A stretch of 64,000 bases of DNA. Origin: Candidatus Omnitrophota bacterium. Its GTDB lineage: Bacteria > Omnitrophota > Gorgyraeia > Pluralincolimonadales > Pluralincolimonadaceae. The stretch lies in contig PLNR01000005.1 in assembly GCA_003141835.1 (NCBI GenBank), positions 53,108 to 117,107 of the forward strand, written 5' to 3'. The notes below the pieces were generated by a model. That model was given only the letters and a program-made list of their open reading frames with translations, made no database searches and was not told where the DNA came from. The translations under genes were made by a program, and so were the position numbers. How positions within the stretch are numbered: position 1 is the first letter of the stretch; each line of letters begins with the position of its first letter. This document shows positions 24,062 to 58,029 of the stretch, one piece after another.

Positions 24062-25088
24062 GATTAAGAAGATCCTGATCCTCCGGTTAGACCGCATAGG
24101 GGATATAGTGCTTTCTACGCCGGCAATTAAAGCGGTGAGGGAATATTTTCCGGAAACGCACATCGCGGTAATGGTCAGGGGGGAATATAAGGGCTTACTC
24201 ATAAACGATCCCGCCATAAATGAGGTCATCGGATGCAAGCCCCTTTGGGATTTTAAGTTCATCGGGGAACTGCGGGACAGGAAGTTCGATCTAGCCGTCG
24301 ACCTGGTCATGGACCGGGATTATAAAAGCGCTTTTTTGGCTTATTTAAGCGGGGCCCCTTATCGGGCAGGGTACGATATTGCAGGCAGGGGCATATTTTT
24401 CAATATAAGGGCCGGATATGGCAAAGAGAAGAAACATCTCGTTGAAAATAATTTAGATGTCATAAGAAAGCTGGGGATAGTCCCCGGCGGGGGGAGGCCT
24501 CAACTTCATGTTGCCCCGCAGGATTCGGGATTTATCAGGGATTTTTTATCATCACAGGGCATTGATCAGGGTGAAATTTTAGTCGGCATCCATCCCGGAG
24601 GATATTATCCATCGCAGCGCTGGCCGGCGGAGAGAGTCGCCGCGCTGTCCGATGAAATAATAAAAAGATACACTGCTAAGGTGGTCCTTATCGGAGGGCC
24701 GGAAGAAAGGGATTTTATGGAAAGGGCTGCGGGATCGATGAAGGTAAAAGCTATTGTCGTAAAAGACATCTCTTTGGCGCATTTAACGGCGCTGATCCGG
24801 CGGTGCCAGCTTTTGGTCTGTAATAATTCCGGGCCCTTGCATATCGCCTGCGCATTAGGGGTGCCTACGGTATCGACTATGGGGCCGACTTTACCCTGGC
24901 GGTGGTGGCCTGTCGGGGAGGGCCACATTGTCCTGCGGAAGGACCTGCCTTGCAGCCCTTGCGGGAAAGGTTCTTGCGGGACGCACGAGTGCATGGAATT
25001 GATCACTGTGGATGAAATGCTGGAGGCGGTTGACAAGCAGATGAAACTTTTGGTGAAGAATAAATGTGCGGAATCTACGGCGCGGTAG
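24042..25088 (+). CDS. family 9 glycosyltransferase (heptosyltransferase-like)
   Basis: ILILRLDRIGDIVLSTPAIKAVREYFP N-terminal signature of GT9 (RfaF/RfaC-like) and C-terminal CxxC Cys cluster. Overlaps the upstream gene by 20 nt. Confidence 0.75.
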   Translation: MLTQKNRIKKILILRLDRIGDIVLSTPAIKAVREYFPETHIAVMVRGEYKGLLINDPAINEVIGCKPLWDFKFIGELRDRKFDLAVDLVMDRDYKSAFLAYLSGAPYRAGYDIAGRGIFFNIRAGYGKEKKHLVENNLDVIRKLGIVPGGGRPQLHVAPQDSGFIRDFLSSQGIDQGEILVGIHPGGYYPSQRWPAERVAALSDEIIKRYTAKVVLIGGPEERDFMERAAGSMKVKAIVVKDISLAHLTALIRRCQLLVCNNSGPLHIACALGVPTVSTMGPTLPWRWWPVGEGHIVLRKDLPCSPCGKGSCGTHECMELITVDEMLEAVDKQMKLLVKNKCAESTAR

Positions 25089-28033
25089 GGATCCGGGACC
25101 CTTCGCTTTTGGAGCGCATGGGCGCGGTCACGATCCATCGCGGCCCTGATGAAAGCGGCGCCTATCTGGATGATGATGCCTCATTGGGCGTGCGGAGGTT
25201 AAAGATAATCGGGTTAGAATCCGGGCATCAGCCGATACACAATGAGGATCAGGCGCTTTGGCTCGTTTATAACGGCGAGATATATAACTTTAAGGAATTA
25301 CGATATTCCCTTGAGGCGAAGGGGCATAAATTCTATACGAAGACAGACGGCGAGGTGATCGTGCACCTCTACGAGGAATACGGCGAGGATTGCGTCAAAC
25401 ATTTAAGAGGGATGTTCGCCTTCGCTGTCTGGGATAAAAAAAACCGGAACTTATTTCTGGCGCGGGACAGGATCGGGATAAAACCGCTTTATTACACATC
25501 TGTTGACGGAGTTTTGTATTTTGCCTCAGAACTTAAGGCCTTATTGGAGGCGGATGTGATCAAAAAAGAGATAAACCCTGAGGCGATACATGATTTCCTG
25601 ACGTTCCTATATATCCCCGCCCCCTCGACGATCTTTAAATCCGTCTTTAAATTACCGCCGGGGTATACCTTGAGATTCCAGGACGGGAGTTATTCGGTAC
25701 AGGAATACTGGGACCTGGAATTGGATATAAGCAAGGAAAAGGATGAAATTTTTTACCTCGATAAGATATACGATCTATTGCAAGAGGCGGTAAAGTTACA
25801 TTTAATAAGCGATGTGCCTTTAGGGGTTTTTTTGAGCGGAGGAGTGGATTCGAGCGTCCTGGTAAGCATTATGGCGGGTTTGACAAATCGACCGATAAAG
25901 ACTTTTAGCATCGGATACGGCAGGAAAGACGAAGATTATAATGAGCTGAAATACGCCCGCCTGGTCAGTGAATGCTTTGGCACGGAGCACAGGGAGTTTA
26001 TCGTCAAACCGGACGCGATCGGACTCTTACCGGAACTCGCCTGGCATTTCGATGAGCCATTCGCGGATTCATCCGCGATCCCCACTTTCTTAATTTCAAA
26101 ATTAGCGAAAAAAGATATAACGGTCGCCTTAAGCGGCATCGGCGGAGATGAGGCCTTTGGGGGATATCCCAGGTATTTAGGCGCTTATATTTCCGGATAT
26201 TACCAGCGGCTGCCGGAAATCATGAGAAAGGCGGCGTATAAAGCGGCATCTTTATTTCCCGAGAGCACGCAGAACAGGGACCTCTTTAGTTGGGCGCGGA
26301 GGTTTGCCAGGGGCGGGCTCCTTCCTTTTGGAATGAGGTATTTCGATTGGGTGACTTTCCTGCGACCGGACGAGATAAATAAACTCTACACGGCAAGTTT
26401 TATCGGAAATTTAAAAGATGCCGGTCCGGTCAAGGATAAGCAGGCTTATTTCGGCGGGGACAGATCGCTGGAGGGGATTTTTCGTTTCGATATAAAAACC
26501 TATCTCCCCGATGACCTGCTCTTTATGGCGGATAAGATGAGCATGGCGAATTCGCTGGAATTGCGGGTGCCGTATTGCGACCACAAGGTGATGGAGTTTG
26601 CCGCCTCGATCCCCTACGGATTAAAGCTCAAAGGGCTTAAATTAAAATACCTGTTAAAAAAATCCTTCAAGGGCCTGCTGCCCCGGGAGGTCTTAACCCG
26701 GCGAAAACAAGGTTTTATGATCCCCATAGGCAGATGGATAAAACAGGACCTGAAGGGCGTCGCGGAAGAGCTCTTGTCCAGGCGGCAAATTGAAAAGCGC
26801 GGCTATTTCAATTACGAATATGTCCGCTGGATCCTGGACCAGCATTACTCCGGAAAACGGGATTTCACCGACAGGATCTGGGCGCTTATGAACCTGGAGA
26901 TGTGGCACAGGATATATATAGACAAAGATCACCCGGTAAATAAGGATATGGATATAGCGGTAGAAGATGTCCCCTCAGCTACGGGCAGGCATTGCCCCCG
27001 GATCGCCGGGGACGATTTTAAGGACGCCAAAAAGATCCTTATCGTAAACCTGGCGGGCATAGGAGACGTTGTGATGTCCACCCCTGCCTTGAGGGCGGTG
27101 AGAAAGAGATTTCCGTCGGCCTTTATCTCGTTCCTTACGGTCCCCGGTTCCGCCGGCATCCTCAGGGGCAGCTCAGATGTAAACGAGATATTGGCTTTAG
27201 ACGCGGGGAGACCGGGTATAAGAGATGTTTTAAGGCTGTTGACGGATCTAAGGAAAGCCAAATATGACATGCTGATCAACCTTTACGAGATAGGTTCGCT
27301 TTCCGGCGCTATTAAGATGGCATCTCTTTTCTGGTTCGTGGGTGGAAAATATAAAGTCGGACGGAATACCGGCGGATTAGGCTTCTTCTTAAATCGTAAA
27401 ATTTTTGAAAGCGCCCGGCTGAAAAGGCATACGGTCGAGTCAATGCTGGACATAGCGAGATTTTTGGGCGGCAACTCGGACGGGAAAGGCATGGAGATAC
27501 CGCTTGAAAAAAATGAGATGGATTTCGCCAGTGATTATCTTAAGTCGCATAATATTTCCGGCGAGGACCTGTTGTTCGGGCTTCATAAAGACGCTAAAAG
27601 GCCGAGCAGGCGCTGGCCGGATGAAAGTTGGGATATTCTGGAAAAAGAATTAAGAATAAGATACGGGGCAAAAATAATCTTGACGCCGGGCGCCGGCGAA
27701 TTTAATTTAAAACAATTTGCCGCCATCCTTAAAAGGTTCGACCTTTTCATTACTAATGATACCGGAGCCATGCATATCGCCGCGGCCGTGGGTACGCCCA
27801 CGGTGGCTTTATTCGGACCGTCGGACATCCATAAGTTCCGGCCTTATGCCGAGAGTGATAAATTTGCGATCGTAAGGAAACACGTCGGTTGTAACCGGCC
27901 TTGCTATAAGCATGATTGCGCAGATAAAGGCTGTATGGAGCGTATTGCGCCTGAAGATGTACTGATAGCGGCGGAGAAAATATTAAATGAAAAAAAGATT
28001 AAAAGTCCTTCATATAATCACGCGCTTAGATAA
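25064..28033 (+). CDS. fusion protein: asparagine-synthase-like amidotransferase (about 620 aa) plus GT9 heptosyltransferase-like domain (about 350 aa)
   Basis: MCGIYGA Ntn-Cys start and SGGVDSS PP-loop, then a continuous frame into ILIVNLAGIGDVVMSTPALRAVRKRFP (GT9 signature). 989 aa with no internal stop. Confidence 0.8.
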   Translation: MCGIYGAVGIRDPSLLERMGAVTIHRGPDESGAYLDDDASLGVRRLKIIGLESGHQPIHNEDQALWLVYNGEIYNFKELRYSLEAKGHKFYTKTDGEVIVHLYEEYGEDCVKHLRGMFAFAVWDKKNRNLFLARDRIGIKPLYYTSVDGVLYFASELKALLEADVIKKEINPEAIHDFLTFLYIPAPSTIFKSVFKLPPGYTLRFQDGSYSVQEYWDLELDISKEKDEIFYLDKIYDLLQEAVKLHLISDVPLGVFLSGGVDSSVLVSIMAGLTNRPIKTFSIGYGRKDEDYNELKYARLVSECFGTEHREFIVKPDAIGLLPELAWHFDEPFADSSAIPTFLISKLAKKDITVALSGIGGDEAFGGYPRYLGAYISGYYQRLPEIMRKAAYKAASLFPESTQNRDLFSWARRFARGGLLPFGMRYFDWVTFLRPDEINKLYTASFIGNLKDAGPVKDKQAYFGGDRSLEGIFRFDIKTYLPDDLLFMADKMSMANSLELRVPYCDHKVMEFAASIPYGLKLKGLKLKYLLKKSFKGLLPREVLTRRKQGFMIPIGRWIKQDLKGVAEELLSRRQIEKRGYFNYEYVRWILDQHYSGKRDFTDRIWALMNLEMWHRIYIDKDHPVNKDMDIAVEDVPSATGRHCPRIAGDDFKDAKKILIVNLAGIGDVVMSTPALRAVRKRFPSAFISFLTVPGSAGILRGSSDVNEILALDAGRPGIRDVLRLLTDLRKAKYDMLINLYEIGSLSGAIKMASLFWFVGGKYKVGRNTGGLGFFLNRKIFESARLKRHTVESMLDIARFLGGNSDGKGMEIPLEKNEMDFASDYLKSHNISGEDLLFGLHKDAKRPSRRWPDESWDILEKELRIRYGAKIILTPGAGEFNLKQFAAILKRFDLFITNDTGAMHIAAAVGTPTVALFGPSDIHKFRPYAESDKFAIVRKHVGCNRPCYKHDCADKGCMERIAPEDVLIAAEKILNEKKIKSPSYNHALR

Positions 28034-29141
28034 AGGCGGCTCTTCGGAGAATACCTTGTTGACCGCCTCCGGCCTGGATAAGGGAAGGTTTGATGTAACC
28101 TTAGTCTTCGGGAAAACCAAGGACCCCGACGGCCGGGTAAGAAGGGCTTTGTCCGATAACGGGATAAATTATCGGGTAGTCCCCCGGCTCGTAAGACAAC
28201 TGGATCCCTGGAGCGACCTGACCGCCTTTTTGAGGTTATACGCTATAATAAAGCGGGGGGATTTCGACATCGTCCACACCCATACGTCAAAAGCAGGCAT
28301 CCTGGGCAGGTGGGCGGCGAAATTAGCCGGCGTCAAGGTCATAATCCACACCCCGCACGGCCATATCTTTTACGGTTATTTTGGCCCGGTAAGGAACAGG
28401 TTGTTCATTATGCTGGAACGGTTCACTGCGCATATTACCGACAGGATAATCACATTAACCCAAAGAGGGAAAGATGAGCACGTTAAATTCGGGATATCCA
28501 AGGCCGATAAATTCGTGTCTATTTATAGCGGAGTAGAGTTAGAAAAGTTCATAAATTCAAACTATGACCCGGCGCAGGCGAGGGAATCGCTTGGCATCCC
28601 GCCAAACGGGCCGGTGATAGGGACCATAACGAGGCTCGAGCCGGTAAAAGGGAACATGTATTTCATCGAAGCGATACCGCAGGTTATCAAGATCTTTCCT
28701 GACCTAAAAGTTATAATAACGGGCGACGGAGCGCAAAAACGCGCTATGGAAAATAAGATCAAGGAACTTTCTTTATCACGGAATGTCATTCTCCGGGGCG
28801 CCACAAATGACGCCCCCGGGGCATTGTCCGCGTTAGACATATTTGTCCTGCCTTCTTTAAATGAAGGGATGGGAAGATGCCTGCTTGAGGCGATGGCCCT
28901 GTCCAAACCGATAATCGCGACAGATGTCGGCGGGGTATCTGAAATTGTCGAGAATGGGGTGAACGGGATATTGGTCCCTCCGAAAGATCCGGACGCGCTG
29001 GCGCAAGCTATAATATCTTTACTGGGAAATAAGGCCCGCGCCGACGGGATGGGCAAGTCGGGCAAGGGTAAGCTCAACCGTTTTTTTAGCGCTCAAGCTA
29101 TGGTAGAAAAGATAGAGGCGTTATACGAAGAACTCACATAA
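27987..29141 (+). CDS. family 4 glycosyltransferase (GT4)
   Basis: EGMGRCLLEAMALSKPIIATDVGGVSEIVENG signature. Confidence 0.8.
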   Translation: MKKRLKVLHIITRLDKGGSSENTLLTASGLDKGRFDVTLVFGKTKDPDGRVRRALSDNGINYRVVPRLVRQLDPWSDLTAFLRLYAIIKRGDFDIVHTHTSKAGILGRWAAKLAGVKVIIHTPHGHIFYGYFGPVRNRLFIMLERFTAHITDRIITLTQRGKDEHVKFGISKADKFVSIYSGVELEKFINSNYDPAQARESLGIPPNGPVIGTITRLEPVKGNMYFIEAIPQVIKIFPDLKVIITGDGAQKRAMENKIKELSLSRNVILRGATNDAPGALSALDIFVLPSLNEGMGRCLLEAMALSKPIIATDVGGVSEIVENGVNGILVPPKDPDALAQAIISLLGNKARADGMGKSGKGKLNRFFSAQAMVEKIEALYEELT

Positions 29142-29148
29142 ATTTTGC

Positions 29149-30279
29149 ATAGTAAACGGCAGCCTGGTATTACCCGGGAAGATCGAGCGAGGCAAAACAC
29201 TTTTCGTAAATAACGGAAAGATCTCGTCGGTCGGAAAAAGCCGCGTCAGGGGCTATGAGGTCCTGGATGCCAAAGGCCTTTTCGTCTCGCCGGGTTTCAT
29301 AGATATCCATGTCCACGGGCTTTTCGCGGACAGGGCCGCGGACATCGGGAGCTCGGGCCTGAAAGAGATGTGCCGGCGGCTGGCTGAACACGGGGTCACG
29401 GGTTTCCTCGCGACTACGGTTTCATTTCCGCCTTCGACGCTCTTGAAGATCGTAAGAGTAGTCAAAGACTTCATTGAAGACAATCCCGGCACGAACCTTT
29501 TGGGTGTCCATCTTGAGGGGCCGTTCGTTAACCCCCAAGCCAGCGGCGCCCAGAACCGTAAATACATACGTCCGTTCGTTCCTTCCGAGATGGAAGACGT
29601 CTTCTCTGAAGGAAGGGGGATCATAAAGGCCGTGACATTCGCGCCCGAGGTAGAGAACGGGATGCGCCTGTTGAAGGCGTTGACAGCCCGCGGCATCAAA
29701 CCGTTCATCGGCCACTCGGTCGCCGGATATAAGGAGGTTGAGGCCGCCGCAGGCAAAGGCGCGACGCATGTTACCCATCTTTTTAACGCTATGCCGGCCC
29801 TGCATCACCGCGGGCCCGGCCTCATAGGCGCTGCGCTTACTATCGGTAATATTACGGCGGATATCATAGCCGACGGCGTCCACGTCGATCCCGTCGCTGT
29901 AAAATTAGCGGTCGAGGCAAAGGGTCCCGGCAAGGTCATCCTGATATCCGACGGGATAGGCGACGGGGAAAAGGCCTTTAAACTAGGCGGCCTGAAGGTG
30001 CGCGTGAAGGGAAAAGAGGCGCGGCTCGAAAACGGCAAGTTGGCCGGAAGCGTCATCGGCCTCGACGAAGCGGTCGGGAACATTATGAGGTTTGCCGGCG
30101 TAAGCCTTCCCGAAGCGGTCGGTATGGCGAGCCTTAATCCGGCGCGCGTCCTGGGCATCGACGGCAGCAAGGGCTCGCTCGAGGCCGGTAAAGACGCCGA
30201 TATCGTGATATTCGACCATGACCTGAAGGTCAGGCACACTATCGTTCACGCTACCAAAATATTTTCCAATCTGGTATAA
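29149..30279 (+). CDS. nagA: N-acetylglucosamine-6-phosphate deacetylase (amidohydrolase); start codon uncertain
   Basis: Conserved N-terminus GKI..G..L...GKI..VG......VLDA.G.FVSPGFIDIHVHG is encoded in-frame upstream of the first ATG (29368). The frame is open from 29116 but has no ATG/GTG/TTG, so the start is set at an ATA codon as a placeholder. Confidence 0.75.
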   Translation: MVNGSLVLPGKIERGKTLFVNNGKISSVGKSRVRGYEVLDAKGLFVSPGFIDIHVHGLFADRAADIGSSGLKEMCRRLAEHGVTGFLATTVSFPPSTLLKIVRVVKDFIEDNPGTNLLGVHLEGPFVNPQASGAQNRKYIRPFVPSEMEDVFSEGRGIIKAVTFAPEVENGMRLLKALTARGIKPFIGHSVAGYKEVEAAAGKGATHVTHLFNAMPALHHRGPGLIGAALTIGNITADIIADGVHVDPVAVKLAVEAKGPGKVILISDGIGDGEKAFKLGGLKVRVKGKEARLENGKLAGSVIGLDEAVGNIMRFAGVSLPEAVGMASLNPARVLGIDGSKGSLEAGKDADIVIFDHDLKVRHTIVHATKIFSNLV

Positions 30280-30287
30280 TTGCTTCT

Positions 30288-31262
30288 ATGCCTTTCTTTA
30301 TAATCCTGATCGCGGTCTTCCTCGCGATGAACGTCGGCGCGAACAACGCCGCCGCCGAAATGGAGGCGGCCTACAGGACCGGCGTCCGCACTAAAAAGGA
30401 AGCGCTGATATTGATCGCCACCTTCGTCATCCTCGGGGCGATAATATCCGGCCTCCCCGTCCTGAAGACCCTGAGCGAAGGGATAGTCCCGATCCGGACC
30501 TTCAAAACCTATTTTTATATCGTCTTCGTCGTTATGGCGGTCTCAGCCGCTTATGATTTCATATCCAGCATCTTCAAGGTATCCATCCCCACCACCTACG
30601 CGATAGTTTCTTCGATCGCGGCGGCAGGCATATATTACGAGACCATGAACGTCGATAAGTACACGGACATCCTCGCCTGGTGGTTCCTTTCGCCTATCTG
30701 CGTCTTCGGCGCCGCGTTCGCCATCGGGAAACTGCTTAATTCCAGGGCCGTAACGGATTACCGTCACCTGAAGGAGGAGAAGAAGGGCAGGGCCGTGCTA
30801 GGCGCGCTCCTGACATTTTCCGGGTGCTATGTGGCTTTCGCCGGCGGCGCGAACGGGGTGGGTAAGGCAATGGCCCCGGTAGTCTCGGTGGGTTTCATAG
30901 ATACCAGGTGGGGAATACTGATAGCCGGCGTCGGGATCGCTGCCGGGGCCCTTATCTTCGGCAAGGCGGCGCTCGAGACCGACGAGAGGGAGATGGGCGA
31001 GATCGGTTTTGTCAGGGCTATAATCATCGAACTGATATGCGCCACGGCGCTTTTGGCCGCCTCGATAAACGGTATCCCGCTCTCGGTATCCGTAACAGTT
31101 ACCGCGAGCCTGACCGGGCTCGGATGCGCCGATATGGGGATAATGCCGAGTCTGAAGAAACATCATGCGGTAAGGAACCTCCTGATGTGGCTTATAGTGC
31201 CTTTCACGTCGGCTTGGCTCACCTATGCCCTTTTGCACCTGCTTAAATCGATATTGAAATGA
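30288..31262 (+). CDS. PiT-family (PHO4-like) inorganic phosphate/sulfate permease
   Basis: N-terminal AMNVGANNAAA matches the GANDVAN signature of the PiT family. About 9 TM helices with internal repeat. Confidence 0.6.
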   Translation: MPFFIILIAVFLAMNVGANNAAAEMEAAYRTGVRTKKEALILIATFVILGAIISGLPVLKTLSEGIVPIRTFKTYFYIVFVVMAVSAAYDFISSIFKVSIPTTYAIVSSIAAAGIYYETMNVDKYTDILAWWFLSPICVFGAAFAIGKLLNSRAVTDYRHLKEEKKGRAVLGALLTFSGCYVAFAGGANGVGKAMAPVVSVGFIDTRWGILIAGVGIAAGALIFGKAALETDEREMGEIGFVRAIIIELICATALLAASINGIPLSVSVTVTASLTGLGCADMGIMPSLKKHHAVRNLLMWLIVPFTSAWLTYALLHLLKSILK

Positions 31263-31657
31263 AATTATCCCTTAAAAAAACGCACATAGCCGAGATCATA
31301 GAACACGCGAAGCGTGATTTCCCGAACGAAGCGTGCGGCCTCCTGGCCGGAAAAGGCAGGAAGGTAAGCAAGGTCTACCGGATGTCGAATACCGAAAGGG
31401 GGGGGATGAGGTATTCGATGGCCCTCAAGGAACAATTCGACGCGGCCAGGGATATGCGTTCGCAAAATATGGAGATAGTCGGGATATACCATTCTCATCC
31501 CAACGTCCGGCCCTATCCCTCTTTCCGCGATATCCAGCGCGCGATGCATCCGGAATGTTCTTATGTCATCGTCTCGCTTATCAACGGCATGCCTGAGGTC
31601 CGTTCGTTCCGGATAATAAAAGGCATGGTGACGGAGGAGGAGATAGATGCCGGCTGA
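31259..31657 (+). CDS. JAMM/MPN+ (Mov34, Mec+-like) metalloisopeptidase
   Basis: Complete JAMM motif E(25)...HSHPNVRPYPSFRD (HxHx7SxxD). 132 aa, the size of CysO/MoaD-deconjugating Mec+/QbsD enzymes. Confidence 0.8.
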   Translation: MKLSLKKTHIAEIIEHAKRDFPNEACGLLAGKGRKVSKVYRMSNTERGGMRYSMALKEQFDAARDMRSQNMEIVGIYHSHPNVRPYPSFRDIQRAMHPECSYVIVSLINGMPEVRSFRIIKGMVTEEEIDAG

Positions 31658-32405
31658 TCTCACTTCCGCCCAGCGGGAGAGGTACAGGAAACATCTCATC
31701 TTTGATGCCATAGGCGAAAAGGGCCAGAGGAAACTTCTTTCTTCGAAGGCCCTGATAATAGGCGCAGGCGGCCTCGGTTCGCCAGCCGCTTTATATCTCG
31801 CCTCCTGCGGGGTGGGCACGATCGGCCTTGTCGACAGCGACGACCTCGAACTTTCCAACCTCCACAGGCAGGTATTATATTCCACTGGCGATATAGGAAA
31901 GCCCAAAGTCTTGCTGGCGGAGAAGAGGCTGAAAGAGATAAATCCCGACGTTAATATCAGGACCTATAAGGTCAGGATGGATGCGGATAACGCGAAAGGC
32001 CTGATCAAAGATTACGACGTGATACTCGACTGCGCCGATAACTTCGAGACCAAGTATCTCATCAATGACACGTGCGTCTCTTTGGATAAGGCCCTGGCGC
32101 ACGGAGGCATTTACGGTTTTGACGGGCAGGTGACTTTCATCCTGCCGGGCAAGGGCCCGTGTTACAGGTGCATCTTCCCGGAACTGCCGGGCCCGGGCGC
32201 GTTCCGCGATTGCCAGCAGGCAGGGATCCTCGGTTCAGTGCCGGCTGTGATCGGCGCGCTGCAGGCGAACGAGGCGTTGAAATACCTGCTCGGGATAGGG
32301 AAGAACCTCGTCGGGCGGCTGTTAAGGTACGACGCGCTTACCGGAGAGTTCAGGATATCGGAATATAAAAAGGACGTGAAATGCCCTGTTTGCGGCGGGA
32401 GATAA
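31647..32405 (+). CDS. ThiF/MoeB/HesA-family E1-like adenylyltransferase
   Basis: IIGAGGLGSPAALYLASCGVGTIGLVDSDDLELSNLHRQ nucleotide-binding signature. Cys clusters CYRC and CPVCGG (zinc site). No rhodanese domain. Overlaps the JAMM gene. Confidence 0.85.
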   Translation: MPADLTSAQRERYRKHLIFDAIGEKGQRKLLSSKALIIGAGGLGSPAALYLASCGVGTIGLVDSDDLELSNLHRQVLYSTGDIGKPKVLLAEKRLKEINPDVNIRTYKVRMDADNAKGLIKDYDVILDCADNFETKYLINDTCVSLDKALAHGGIYGFDGQVTFILPGKGPCYRCIFPELPGPGAFRDCQQAGILGSVPAVIGALQANEALKYLLGIGKNLVGRLLRYDALTGEFRISEYKKDVKCPVCGGR

Positions 32406-32411
32406 ACTGAT

Positions 32412-33332
32412 ATGACGGCCAGGTTTGAATTGTGGGCGGTATTCGGCGTCGCGATAACCGCTATGCTTTTCATCGACCTGTTCGTCGTGAACAGGAAGTC
32501 GCACGCGATCTCGGTCAAGGAGGCGCTGAAGTGGGTCGCCATCTGGGTCGGGGCAGCGCTGTTCTTTTGCGCGGGGATATTCTTCCTTATGGGGAAGGTA
32601 AAGGCCCTCGAATTCCTTACCGGTTATATCCTCGAAGAATCGCTGAGTGTCGACAACCTTTTCGTCTTTATCATGATATTCGAATATTTCCACGTTCCCC
32701 GGACTTTCCAGCCCCGCGTGCTCAAGTGGGGGATAATCGGCGCCATAGTGTTGAGGGCATTGTTCATCATAGCGGGGGTAGGGCTCTTCACGAAGTTCGG
32801 CTGGATAATATACGTTTTTGGCGCGTTCCTTATTTTTACCGCGGTCAAGCTTGTGTTGAGGAAAGAGGAAAAATTCGAACCCGAGAAGAACCCGTTATTG
32901 CGCTTGTTCAGGAGGTTCTTCAGGGTCTCCGCGGAATACCACGAGGACAGGTTTTTCGTATTGCACAGCGGCGCCTGGGCGGCGACCCCTCTTTTCATCG
33001 CGCTGCTCCTGATAGAGTCGAGTGATGTGATATTCGCGATGGACTCGATACCGGCGGTCCTCGCCGTCACCAGGGACCCGTTCATCGTATATACTTCCAA
33101 CATATTCGCGATACTCGGCTTGCGTTCGCTCTTCTTCGTGATATCCGGCATAATGCCGGTCTTCCGTTACCTGAAGCTGGGCATCTCGGCGATACTCTGT
33201 TTCGTGGGCGTCAAGATGCTCATCTCCCATTTCGTAGAGATAGATATCCGTATCTCACTGGCGGTCATATTCGGGTTATTGGCCGCGTCGATAGCCGCGT
33301 CACTCGTCTTTAAAGAAAAAGGAGAGAAATAG
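32412..33332 (+). CDS. TerC-family integral membrane protein
   Basis: About 8 TM helices with the paired DNLFVF/acidic motifs typical of the TerC/Alx family. Confidence 0.7.
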   Translation: MTARFELWAVFGVAITAMLFIDLFVVNRKSHAISVKEALKWVAIWVGAALFFCAGIFFLMGKVKALEFLTGYILEESLSVDNLFVFIMIFEYFHVPRTFQPRVLKWGIIGAIVLRALFIIAGVGLFTKFGWIIYVFGAFLIFTAVKLVLRKEEKFEPEKNPLLRLFRRFFRVSAEYHEDRFFVLHSGAWAATPLFIALLLIESSDVIFAMDSIPAVLAVTRDPFIVYTSNIFAILGLRSLFFVISGIMPVFRYLKLGISAILCFVGVKMLISHFVEIDIRISLAVIFGLLAASIAASLVFKEKGEK

Positions 33333-34370
33333 ATGCCCGAGCTCAGGGAGAACCTCGCCACTAAAAGATGGGTGGCGATCGCCACCGAGCGCGCGAAGAG
33401 GTCCGACGATTTCAATAAAGGCAAAGAATTGCCGGCGCCGCGTCCGGCATATGACGCGAAATGCCCGTTCTGCGAGGGGAACGAGACCCCGGACCAGACC
33501 GAGGAGTTCTCGATCCGTGACCCCGGGACCAGGCCCGGCGAAAAGGGATGGAAGATAAGAGCGATCCCCAATAAGTATCCTGTGCTTGTCCCCGCGCGTA
33601 AAGGCGCTTCAATCGAGGTGAAGAGGCACAAGGCCGGCATATACCTCCATATGGAAGGGATCGGAAAGCATGAAGTTATCGTCGAGAACCCGGCCCACAA
33701 CAAGACTATTGCGACGATGACGCTCGACGAGGTCGCGACCGTAATAAAGGCATACCACGAAAGATACCTTGCGCTCGACCGGGACCCGGCGTATAAGCAG
33801 GTCCTGATATTCCGCAACCAGGGCGCCGGCGCCGGCGCTTCACAGCTGCATCCGCACTCTCAGATAATAGCCACAGCTATCATCGCGCAGCATATGAGGT
33901 ATGCCTTGATAGAAGCGCAAAGATATTTCGACGAACTCGGAAAGTGCGTCTTCTGCGACATGATAAAATATGAGCTTGCGGAGAAAGAGCGGCTGGTGAT
34001 GCAAAATGATAAATTCGTCGCATTCGTCCCTTATGCGGCGCTGCTCCCTTATGAGACCTGGATATTGCCGCTCAAGCACTCGACCTCTTTCGCCAACCTG
34101 CTGCCCGAGGACACAGGGTCGCTCGCCCAGATACTGCGTGACATCCTTGCGAAATTATATTACGGCCTGAACAATCCCGATTACAATTACTGCATAAAGA
34201 GCGTCCCCCATTACTCGGCGTGCGAGCCTTATTACCACTGGCATATACAGATACTCCCGCGCCTTACGACGCCGGCGGGCTTTGAGATCGGTTCGGGTAT
34301 GGCCGTAAATGTCGCGCTCCCTGAGGAGTCGGCTAAATTCCTGCGCGAATTCAAGGTCGGGACGCCGTGA
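33333..34370 (+). CDS. GalT-like (HIT superfamily) hexose-1-phosphate nucleotidyltransferase
   Basis: CPFCEGNE zinc motif and HPHSQ active-site histidine motif of class I galactose-1-phosphate uridylyltransferases. Second CVFCD motif. Confidence 0.7.
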   Translation: MPELRENLATKRWVAIATERAKRSDDFNKGKELPAPRPAYDAKCPFCEGNETPDQTEEFSIRDPGTRPGEKGWKIRAIPNKYPVLVPARKGASIEVKRHKAGIYLHMEGIGKHEVIVENPAHNKTIATMTLDEVATVIKAYHERYLALDRDPAYKQVLIFRNQGAGAGASQLHPHSQIIATAIIAQHMRYALIEAQRYFDELGKCVFCDMIKYELAEKERLVMQNDKFVAFVPYAALLPYETWILPLKHSTSFANLLPEDTGSLAQILRDILAKLYYGLNNPDYNYCIKSVPHYSACEPYYHWHIQILPRLTTPAGFEIGSGMAVNVALPEESAKFLREFKVGTP

Positions 34371-35761
34371 GATCAGCCGCCGCGTTCGCATTATTTTGCC
34401 TGCTTTTCCTTCCTGCGGCCGAAGCCGCCCCCGGCAATACCGTTCCTCCTAAGCTCGAGGGGTGGTACCTGGTCTGGCACGACGAGTTCGACGGTGACAA
34501 GGTTGACCCGGCAAAGTGGAGGGTCGAAGATGCCGCTCTCGTGAAGAACAAGGAACTGGAATATTATTCCCCGGCGAACGTCTACGTTAGGGACGGGAAG
34601 CTTATCATAAAGAGCGAAAAGAAGGAACAGGGCGGGCGTCCGTACACCTCGGGCCTTGTAGAGACGAAAGGCAGGTATTCTTTTGAATACGGCCGGGTCG
34701 AGGTCCGCGCCAAGCTACCCGGCACAAAAGGCTTATGGCCGGCCCATTGGATGATGCCGGCGAAGGGCGGATGGCCGCCGGAGATAGATATAATGGAACT
34801 CGTGGGGAGCAAGCCCGATGCGATACACATGACGAACCACTACGGCGAATTCCCGCGTAATCGTTATGACTCAAAGGTCTTCAACGGCCCGGATTACACG
34901 AAAGATTTCCACGTCTTTGCGCTGGAATGGGATCCTGCGGGACTGCACTGGTATATAGACGGCGTCATGCATTTTTCCGTGTCGAGGAACGTCCCGCACG
35001 AACCATTCTATATAATACTCAATACCGCGGTAGGGGGTACGATGCCCCGTGACCCCGACGAAACGACGGTCTTTCCGCAACACCACGAGGTAGATTATGT
35101 GCGCGTCTACATGAAGGAGATACCCGGCACATACTTTCTCATGACATCTGCAGTAAACGGGAAGATAACGGTCGACCCCAGGCTTCCGAGGTATAACAAG
35201 GGCGATAAGGTAAGGGTGGCCGCCGTCCCCGCGATAGGCTATAAATTCGAAGGTTGGAACGGGGACGCAAACCTTGGCAGCAATAATCCCGGTACAGTAT
35301 TGATGAACAGGCACAAGACGATAACCGCGAATTTCGCACCTGATCCCAACGCGCCGAAACTCATTTCGCGCGGCAAGAAAACGGCTGCGTCGACCTCAGA
35401 GAGCCCCGAATTATCGGCAGGGAACGCCGTCGACGGGGATATGGGCACCCGCTGGTCGTCGGAGTTCTTTGACCCCCAGTGGATATATGTAGACCTCGGC
35501 AAGTCCTGCGCGATAGAGGCGGTCCGCCTCGAATGGGAGAATGCGTCCGCGAGGGCGTTCAAGCTCCAGGTCTCTGATGACGCCAGGAGCTGGAGGACAG
35601 TCTATTCGACCGATAACGGGGCAGGGGGGACCGAGGAGATCACCGGCCTGGACGTTACCGGCAGGTATGTGCGCATGTACGGCTCAGAGCGCAGGTCAAA
35701 GTACGGTTATTCTCTCTGGGAGTTCGAGGTCTTCGGCAAAGAGCCGCCTTCCGTTATGTAG
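34367..35761 (+). CDS. secreted family 16 glycoside hydrolase with C-terminal F5/8 type C (discoidin) domain
   Basis: GTG start and signal peptide. GH16 catalytic motif EIDIMELVG (E-x-D-x-x-E). C-terminal GNAVDGDMGTRWSSE...WIYVDLG discoidin signature. Confidence 0.8.
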   Translation: MRSAAAFALFCLLFLPAAEAAPGNTVPPKLEGWYLVWHDEFDGDKVDPAKWRVEDAALVKNKELEYYSPANVYVRDGKLIIKSEKKEQGGRPYTSGLVETKGRYSFEYGRVEVRAKLPGTKGLWPAHWMMPAKGGWPPEIDIMELVGSKPDAIHMTNHYGEFPRNRYDSKVFNGPDYTKDFHVFALEWDPAGLHWYIDGVMHFSVSRNVPHEPFYIILNTAVGGTMPRDPDETTVFPQHHEVDYVRVYMKEIPGTYFLMTSAVNGKITVDPRLPRYNKGDKVRVAAVPAIGYKFEGWNGDANLGSNNPGTVLMNRHKTITANFAPDPNAPKLISRGKKTAASTSESPELSAGNAVDGDMGTRWSSEFFDPQWIYVDLGKSCAIEAVRLEWENASARAFKLQVSDDARSWRTVYSTDNGAGGTEEITGLDVTGRYVRMYGSERRSKYGYSLWEFEVFGKEPPSVM

Positions 35762-35780: not shown

Positions 35781-35808
35781 TTGACAAAACCCCGGATATC
35801 ATTATAAT
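35781..35808 (+). promoter_or_regulatory. consensus sigma70 promoter (TTGACA-16-TATAAT) for the TetR/efflux operon
   Basis: TTGACA at 35781-35786 and TATAAT at 35803-35808 with a 16-nt spacer. Confidence 0.6.
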
Positions 35809-57734: not shown

Positions 57735-57867
57735 AATAAATTTCCGGGAGCTCTTGACAAATCCGGGATATATGGTAAAATATCTGCCAGTAAGATCGTT
57801 ATAGACAAAGGCGTTCCACATTGGGGCGTCTTTTTATTTTTACAAAATACACGCTTAATTTCTCATT

Positions 57868-57992
57868 ATCACCCGCGTCTATCGGGGATAAAAGAGGAAG
57901 CGGGGGAACCAAGTTTTTGGGGCGAATATCTGAAGTTTAGATTAGGGCCGCTCAGCCCGAGTCCGACAGCTAACCTCGTCAGCCCATTTTAG
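57868..57992 (+). ncRNA. candidate c-di-AMP (ydaO/kimA-type) riboswitch in kdp leader
   Basis: Leader contains CGGGGGAACCA, GGGGCGAAT and CCGACAGCTAACCTCGT blocks resembling the two pseudo-symmetric conserved segments of the ydaO motif. Followed directly by a terminator. Assignment by memory only. Confidence 0.4.
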
Positions 57993-58029
57993 AGAGAACA
58001 CACCGGAGAATGCGTTCTCTGGTTTTTTA
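57993..58029 (+). terminator. rho-independent terminator / attenuator upstream of kdpF
   Basis: AGAGAAC (14-nt loop) GTTCTCT then GGTTTTTTATTT. Confidence 0.7.

Follow-up and report, generated by a model that had tools for sequence, protein, structure and literature searches.

A JAMM peptidase, an E1-like enzyme and a PiT permease in Candidatus Omnitrophota as the probable remnant of a thiocarboxylate sulfur-carrier pathway

Operons in which a protein resembling ThiS/MoaD, a JAB (JAMM) peptidase and an E1-like enzyme always devoid of a rhodanese domain are joined by SirA/TusA, sulfate transporters, 3'-phosphoadenosine-5'-phosphosulfate (PAPS) reductase and sulfite reductase have been described as type 4e, and derivatives with JAB and E1 only (type 4b) were noted in the same study (Iyer, Burroughs and Aravind, 2006; PMC1779556). 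The present analysis concerns a JAMM/MPN+ metallopeptidase gene and an E1-like adenylyltransferase gene that lie between genes for a PiT-family permease and a TerC-family membrane protein in 64,000 nucleotides of DNA from a Candidatus Omnitrophota bacterium (assembly GCA_003141835.1, contig PLNR01000005.1, positions 53,108 to 117,107; this whole stretch is called the window). The JAMM, E1 and PiT genes are probably what is left of a thiocarboxylate pathway to cysteine and/or homocysteine, whose carrier and pyridoxal phosphate (PLP) enzyme genes have gone from the locus, the carrier presumably being encoded elsewhere. The kind of system itself is already known, from the type 4e operons, from CysO/Mec and from MetO/MetM.

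In Mycobacterium tuberculosis the corresponding system consists of Mec (Rv1334), CysO, CysM and MoeZ, with CysO as a free protein, and a comparable homocysteine system is formed by HcyS, HcyD and HcyF in Wolinella. The MetM/MetO route leads from O-phosphohomoserine to homocysteine, with Mec maturing the carrier MetO and MoeZ loading it with sulfur; this route, and the frequent misannotation of MetM as threonine synthase, are summarized in a preprint that cites Hasebe et al. 2024 for them (10.1101/2024.10.14.618325).

The metallopeptidase of the window, which is of the Mec type (CysO/MetO hydrolase and maturase), is encoded at 31259-31657 on the forward strand (132 aa; Prok-JAB, 1e-25). It matches PF14464 with 90.2 bits (cutoff 25), its structural relatives in the PDB include 2KKS (2e-22) and PfJAMM1 (1e-9), and its homologues are overwhelmingly from Candidatus Omnitrophota. 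The intact JAMM motif reported in the initial annotation, which was made from the DNA letters alone, was borne out: E24 (in NEACG), H78-S-H80, S88 and D91 are all present, and the five catalytic residues are invariant in alignments of 27 and 25 homologues. The E1 gene (31647-32405, forward strand; 252 aa; ThiF, 9.5e-84) overlaps the JAMM gene by 11 nt, in agreement with the overlap first noted. Its product is a single-domain enzyme of the ThiF/MoeB type that matches the full PF00899 (ThiF) model (positions 1-238 of 238), aligns over its whole length with E. coli ThiF (1ZFN; 6e-60) and retains the Rossmann motif GxGxxG (IIGAGGLGS), the two CxxC pairs (CYRC and CPVCG) and the Cys184 equivalent in DCQQAGILG. 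Its earlier assignment as an E1-like adenylyltransferase is thus confirmed by a full-length ThiF domain with both CxxC pairs. The protein has no rhodanese domain and covers only positions 13-261 of the 392-position NCBIfam MoeZ model; it should therefore not be filed as MoeZ, and it fits the rhodanese-less E1s of the type 4e operons. It also scores below all NCBIfam equivalog cutoffs, that of MoeZ as well as those of MoeB (PRK08762; 333.6 versus 449), UbaA (306 versus 450), ThiF (260.3 versus 275.25) and PRK05690 (258.4 versus 266).

Of the 160 loci in which the wider distribution of the pair was surveyed, 80 come from GTDB species genomes, and JGI metagenomes contributed the other 80. They were retrieved with JAMM alignments, and window proteins as well as reference proteins were placed on them by tblastn (individual loci are cited by L numbers). 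The usual arrangement in Omnitrophota is a long, operon-like sulfate-assimilation supercluster whose 5' part contains (DUF2061), CysH (PAPS reductase), PiT/PHO4, JAMM, hemA, hemC/cobA/hemD, hemB and hemL, and whose 3' part contains a ThiS~CysK fusion, a ferredoxin-type sulfite reductase, TusA, a threonine-synthase-like PLP enzyme, a MoaD/Urm1-like protein of 92-111 aa, a ThiF-type E1 and a NIL-domain protein. The order CysH-PHO4-JAB-siroheme genes-ThiS~CysK-sulfite reductase-TusA-MetM-like-MoaD-like-E1-NIL recurs in roughly 50 Omnitrophota loci. The same JAB profile also retrieved Actinomycetota loci (L016, L021) with the classical mec-cysO-cysM layout, sulfite reductase-TusA-CysH followed further on by JAMM-ThiS-CysK/M-E1, and Nitrospirota loci with TusA-E1-JAMM. 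A recognisable carrier occurred within 10 kb in 33 of the 40 genome loci that had at least 5 kb on each side. Orthologues of the JAMM peptidase are thus located in mec-cysO-cysM-like and sulfate-assimilation clusters, which supports the proposal of the initial annotation that the pair has the arrangement of CysO/QbsE-type sulfur-carrier systems.

The ThiS~CysK proteins of these clusters form a family in which the junction reads FVYYMGGG, the linker has 9-19 aa and the whole protein about 377-385 aa (for example L004 13687-14820; also L014, L015, L024, L035, L045, L050, L059, L067, L094, L184 and L186). According to NCBIfam, the two halves are ThiS (69 bits, cutoff 37) and CysK (468 bits, cutoff 351), and the small carrier of the canonical cluster belongs to the MoaD family and is SAMP1-like. 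At least 8000 matches to the fusion were found in a set of 5.8 billion proteins; the best 120 all combine PF02597 with PF00291, at 73-100% identity. They come from Omnitrophota and some other candidate phyla, are annotated only as 'cysteine synthase A', and no description of this fusion was found in the sulfur-carrier literature compared. A second conserved module (L094 12320-15211, L109 6246-8815, L184 8001-10592) consists of a MetM-like enzyme, a usually tailed MoaD/Urm1-like carrier, a ThiF-type E1 and a 79-aa NIL protein, and probably represents a homocysteine route of the MetM/MetO type.

Compared with the type 4e operons, the canonical Omnitrophota cluster agrees point for point, down to an E1 that lacks rhodanese and is accompanied by TusA, whereas the transporter is an ABC system in the former and of the PiT/CysP type in Omnitrophota. 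The window lacks TusA, a ubiquitin-like carrier and the reductases, and is therefore a fragment of a type 4e operon and not a complete one; it resembles the derivatives with JAB and E1 only, although the type 4b derivatives carry an E1-rhodanese fusion, unlike the window E1. As far as the preprint summary describes the MetM/MetO/Mec/MoeZ system of Streptomyces (10.1101/2024.10.14.618325), the canonical cluster and L109 share with it a threonine-synthase-like enzyme beside a tailed MoaD-like carrier, an E1 and a JAMM peptidase, the common logic being the JAMM-dependent maturation of a tailed carrier. By comparison with the same summary, the window lacks MetM and MetO, the E1 is without rhodanese, and Omnitrophota add the NIL-domain protein, which has no counterpart there. 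With Mec, CysO, CysM and MoeZ of M. tuberculosis, the window shares the JAMM family, predicted here too to release the amino acid from its carrier, and an E1-like activator; however, its E1 lacks the rhodanese domain of MoeZ, the locus contains neither a CysO nor a CysM gene, and the carrier of Omnitrophota is of the ThiS type and usually fused to CysK. The archaeal SAMP/UbaA/JAMM1 system is also related, since the desampylase model (77 bits for the JAMM protein) and the UbaA model (306 bits for the E1) are among the best NCBIfam matches and PfJAMM1 is among the PDB relatives, but these scores lie under the equivalog cutoffs (130 bits in the case of desampylase), and the Omnitrophota neighbourhoods are biosynthetic and give no sign of protein conjugation. 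HvJAMM1 is able to cleave a carrier fused to another protein.

The presence of a peptidase in these clusters is accounted for by the carriers themselves. In all 30 ThiS-type carriers inspected, the YYMGGG sequence is followed either by the 9-19-residue linker into CysK or by a short tail (YAF, KL, A, SLW, SP); 92 of the 120 fusions from the database fit the strict junction pattern, and 83 of these 92 read FVYYMGGG. MoaD-type carriers extend 1-20 residues beyond the Gly-Gly in 41 of 58 cases and end exactly there in 14. As the Gly-Gly is usually masked by a tail or by the fused CysK, a free Gly-Gly for adenylation usually needs cleavage and thus a peptidase, and we infer that JAMM cleavage exposes the carrier Gly-Gly in Omnitrophota. 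A carrier-maturing role is also known for HcyD and QbsD. The same role is given to Mec in the GapMind preprint (10.1101/2024.10.14.618325).

The third gene of the putative remnant, at 30288-31262 (forward strand; 324 aa; Pfam PHO4, 5.9e-38), encodes a CysP-like PiT/PHO4-family permease, which scores 131 bits against PF01384 (cutoff 33.7) and has the CysP sulfate permease (NF053884; 189.8 bits) as its sole NCBIfam match. Its gene overlaps the JAMM gene by 4 nt. PHO4 stands directly 5' of the orthologous JAB gene in 26 of the 80 genome loci and in 44 of the 80 metagenome loci, usually just after CysH; since a PiT permease thereby belongs regularly to the ancestral sulfate-assimilation cluster, the association of PiT with JAMM is of a known kind. 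Two paralogues have to be distinguished. The canonical one follows CysH in about 60 surveyed loci, whereas the window type is found beside CysH only in L067 and beside JAB-CysK in L109. At L067 (6802-9990) both stand side by side around CysH, the window type (68% identical) followed by the canonical type, so that they are old paralogues, both tied to sulfur clusters. By homology, the window permease probably imports sulfate or a related sulfur oxyanion.

The window belongs to a clade of loci that share the order PiT-JAMM-E1-TerC-GalT-GH16 (L002/L010, L006, L104, L105, L107, L110; L087 has the same order without GalT), with JAMM proteins 54%-99% identical to that of the window and varying 5' neighbours. 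L007 and L008, which are truncated contigs, contain PiT-JAMM-E1 only. The possibility that the four genes from PiT to TerC might be neighbours in no relative, which the initial annotation had left standing, can therefore be set aside, as they are neighbours in at least nine distinct relatives; among the 160 loci, the four-gene neighbourhood is nevertheless confined to this one Omnitrophota clade. The nearest outgroups by JAMM similarity (59-61%), L009 and L109, both have more sulfur genes. L009 reads JAMM-cysG(N)-hemB-hemL-ThiS-CysK-sulfite reductase-TusA-MetM-like-MoaD-like. L109 (Omnitrophica WOR_2 SM23_29) begins with a window-type PiT (65%), Rrf2, JAMM (61%), CysK without ThiS and a MetM-like gene, and continues with a MoaD-like gene (AIAGG+GKKWS), E1, NIL, an unknown gene, GalT (65%) and GH16 (60%). 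The window order is that of L109 minus Rrf2, CysK, MetM, MetO and NIL, plus TerC, and this loss of carrier and PLP genes points to stepwise erosion of the locus.

The JAMM and E1 genes are under purifying selection and still in use. The ratio of nonsynonymous to synonymous substitution rates (dN/dS) in pairs that are not saturated is 0.05-0.33 for JAMM and 0.05-0.18 for E1, similar to the neighbouring genes, and the clade includes divergences at which dS is saturated. A substrate carrier is thus expected, and it is probably encoded elsewhere in the genome. Extrapolating from characterized homologues, the permease would import a sulfur oxyanion, the JAMM peptidase would remove the tail or fused domain that covers the C-terminal Gly-Gly of the carrier, and the E1 would adenylate the carrier glycine, with subsequent sulfur loading to a thiocarboxylate. 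A PLP enzyme (CysK/CysM or MetM) would then condense the thiocarboxylate with an activated serine or homoserine, and hydrolysis of the carrier-amino acid adduct by JAMM would regenerate the carrier. In the window clade, the carrier and PLP genes that lie between JAMM and E1 in the sister lineage would have gone, and the three genes kept would use a carrier from elsewhere.

The absence of a free 60-100-aa ThiS/MoaD/CysO-like open reading frame (ORF) ending in Gly-Gly, remarked on in the initial annotation, was confirmed for the window by a scan of ORF ends, in which no plausible ORF ended in Gly-Gly plus 0-8 residues, and by two carrier hidden Markov models (HMMs). Such an ORF is, moreover, too narrow a search image, because the carriers of this lineage are usually fused to CysK or tailed. 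Carriers from related clusters, 55 of the ThiS type and 57 of the MoaD type, served to build the HMMs, which gave 1e-31 to 1e-47 with positive controls. With all proteins of the canonical cluster as tblastn queries, only PHO4 and JAB were matched in the window. Neither the window nor the stretch covered in the carrier search, about 79 kb of a 443-kb ENA metagenome contig that contains the window (record positions 15,975-95,041), has TusA, PAPS reductase, sulfite reductase or a ThiS/MoaD-like carrier. In the set of 5.8 billion proteins, both the ThiS~CysK fusion and a MetM-like query met families so large and uniform that no member could be tied to the window contig or to other contigs of the clade. 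Three hits on long contigs that were considered as the clade's carrier or PLP partner (P0125, P0322, P0252) proved to be canonical clusters of other genomes. The suggestion that the pair is an orphan serving a distant ubiquitin-like protein stands as the best reading: no local carrier was found in the stretch covered, and a distant one is probable.

Several observations weigh against a remnant pathway supplied by such a carrier. Neither carrier HMM found a match in the six-frame translation of the window, of 7 kb to its left and of 8.7 kb to its right, and no carrier or PLP partner occurs within 10 kb on either side of the same genes in nine clade relatives. Identity between the window-type PiT and that of the canonical cluster is only about 25%, and both the window protein (189.8 bits) and the canonical paralogue (193.8 bits) remain under the 400-bit cutoff of the CysP model NF053884, so that a sulfate-type substrate is deduced for either of them from homology. 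The E1 of the window shares only 39% identity with that of L109, as against about 55% with the canonical E1 adjacent to MetO, and the clade E1s form a branch of their own in a crude neighbour-joining tree that is too rough to show which paralogue the window E1 represents. With this low identity and separate branch, a simple deletion scenario is not proven.

A second reading shares the gene loss and differs in its outcome: the clade would have lost both thiocarboxylate synthesis of cysteine and homocysteine and sulfate reduction, and the relic E1/JAMM pair would now serve a MoaD, ThiS or TtuB/SAMP-like carrier. We regard this as possible, at roughly one chance in a handful. It draws on a graded series, in which L009 keeps sulfite reductase, ThiS, CysK, MetM and MetO, the 15-kb locus of L109 is without CysH, sulfite reductase, siroheme genes and ThiS, and the locus of the window clade is without those genes and also without CysK, MetM, MetO and NIL. 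The E1 scores nearly equally on the MoeB, UbaA and ThiF models, all below cutoff, and the purifying selection means that a relic pair, too, would still be used; single E1s serve such carriers in Thermus (TtuC) and Haloferax (UbaA). However, a sulfate-type permease overlaps JAMM translationally in every member of the clade, which fits continued sulfur assimilation better; no MoaE, ThiG or TtuA gene was found near the pair, and molybdenum cofactor and thiamin operons are characteristically without JAB (Iyer et al., 2006; PMC1779556). It is unlikely that the clade lost all conventional carriers and kept the pair for tens of millions of years, fixed beside PiT and TerC, for a carrier-independent or otherwise non-canonical role, which may be, for example, the activation and processing of a protein unlike ThiS/MoaD or a membrane-coupled process that handles oxyanions of sulfur, selenium or tellurium.

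The initial annotation had also offered a membrane-associated sulfur/ion-handling module not described for these families. In that case PiT, JAMM, E1 and TerC would jointly handle sulfur, selenium, tellurium or a metal, either without a ubiquitin-like carrier or with a non-canonical substrate. The four genes are indeed contiguous in the clade relatives across JAB identities of 54%-99% and despite differing 5' neighbours, and PHO4-JAB is followed in one further lineage by a membrane protein of the GDT1/UPF0016 family. Yet PiT is a regular cluster member (70 of the 160 loci), while TerC stands beside JAB or E1 in none of the surveyed loci outside the clade; GalT, GH16 and the TetR-efflux genes share in the synteny just as much, and the TerC linkage therefore looks inherited; GalT has been lost in a strain with a 99%-identical JAMM, so that the block is not fixed; both enzymes retain every feature of their carrier-dependent homologues; and the GDT1 case is limited to that one lineage. 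A new module of this kind is hence improbable and lacks support. Still more remote is a role in defence against phages or in ubiquitin-like conjugation, as in systems of the CBASS Cap2/Cap3, 6A-MBL or Bub type. In this direction the pair shows weak generic PADLOC matches (JAB and E1-E2), and with NCBIfam 6A-MBL cap2_3, where the cutoff is 320 bits, it scores 15.8 and 48.7 bits. The PADLOC matches are limited to the shared catalytic cores, the E1, at 252 aa, consists of the ThiF domain alone and has no E2 module, no CD-NTase, effector, E2 or ubiquitin-like protein lies nearby, and the orthologues are found in sulfur-assimilation operons; domain architecture and neighbourhood effectively refute this interpretation.

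The gene that follows the pair on the forward strand, at 32412-33332, encodes a TerC/Alx-family protein (306 aa; Pfam TerC, 1.8e-49; NCBIfam TIGR03718, 401.7 bits, cutoff 246.4). It is separated from E1 by a 6-nt gap, and no manganese-type yybP-ykoY riboswitch was found upstream of it in an Rfam scan. Directly 3' of it, without a gap, comes a GalT-like HIT enzyme (33333-34370) that reaches the galT_1 equivalog cutoff of NCBIfam, followed by a GH16 glucanase (34367-35761) that overlaps it by 4 nt. GalT and GH16 are syntenic in the same clade to which the adjacency of TerC with JAB or E1 is limited, and TerC, GalT and GH16 look like neighbours by descent, with a seemingly incidental link to TerC. 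In L087 (3535-5780, corresponding to window 32412-35761), where the JAMM is 99% identical, the GalT-like gene has been cleanly lost and TerC is followed by GH16. A function of the GalT-like protein as a sulfate-activating HIT enzyme was rejected, as it reaches the galT_1 cutoff, is paired with GH16 and is missing in this strain. In L186 and L187 (653-1219; the contig is shared with L156), PiT-JAMM is followed immediately by a GDT1/UPF0016 protein (faint TauE) and a low-molecular-weight phosphatase, the cluster being canonical in other respects. Sulfite reductase and TusA form a fusion of 755 aa there, and a thioredoxin stands between the MetM-like gene and the carrier. A LysE-superfamily membrane protein as a recurrent neighbour of PHO4-JAB was likewise rejected, since the GDT1 case occurs in one lineage only.

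It had been proposed that both flanks of the pair are membrane proteins whose start/stop overlaps suggest co-transcription. The membrane proteins are confirmed by the PHO4 and TerC matches, and the overlap holds between PHO4 and JAB, but E1 and TerC are separated by their gap. Dense packing on the same strand extends from about 18.4 to 35.8 kb, over a polysaccharide cluster, a NagA-like gene, the PiT-JAMM-E1-TerC block and sugar genes; as these are functionally unrelated, gene overlaps are non-specific evidence for a four-gene operon. A scan of the window for promoters and terminators performed no better than on shuffled sequence, except for one sigma-70 site. This perfect consensus (TTGACA-16-TATAAT, 35781-35808) lies directly 5' of TetR, the first gene of an efflux cluster (TetR-MFP-ABC-OMP), and the promoter forms the 3' boundary of the densely packed block.

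On the 5' side of the permease, the open frame of a NagA-like deacetylase (29116-30279) reaches back to 29116 and includes the N-terminal metal-binding motif PGFIDIHVHG. The frame has no ATG, GTG or TTG upstream of 29368, so that the listed ORF of 303 aa is short of about 75 N-terminal residues, and the gene has 369 aa in strains sharing a 99%-identical JAMM. The window gene may have lost its start codon or may use a non-canonical one. Upstream of the nagA start region, no homology was found between the window and L087. Further upstream, a protein of 989 aa (25064-28033) fuses an asparagine synthase (GATase and Asn_synthase) to a GT9 heptosyltransferase-like domain, within a polysaccharide cluster of about 29 kb that contains many B12-binding radical SAM enzymes and methyltransferases. 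Elsewhere in the window, a cyclic di-AMP riboswitch (Rfam RF00379, 79.8 bits; 57842-57999) is located just 5' of kdpA-kdpB-kdpC-kdpD (58270 onward).

What appeared to be an orphan E1/JAMM pair is thus explained as a piece of a well-described sulfur-carrier pathway, and the link to TerC loses its significance. The labels 'cysteine synthase A' and 'threonine synthase' probably hide a thiocarboxylate route to cysteine and homocysteine in Omnitrophota and in neighbouring candidate phyla. The loss of genes from L009 through L109 to the window clade gives a small example of an eroding pathway, in a phylum for which host-dependent lifestyles are suspected.

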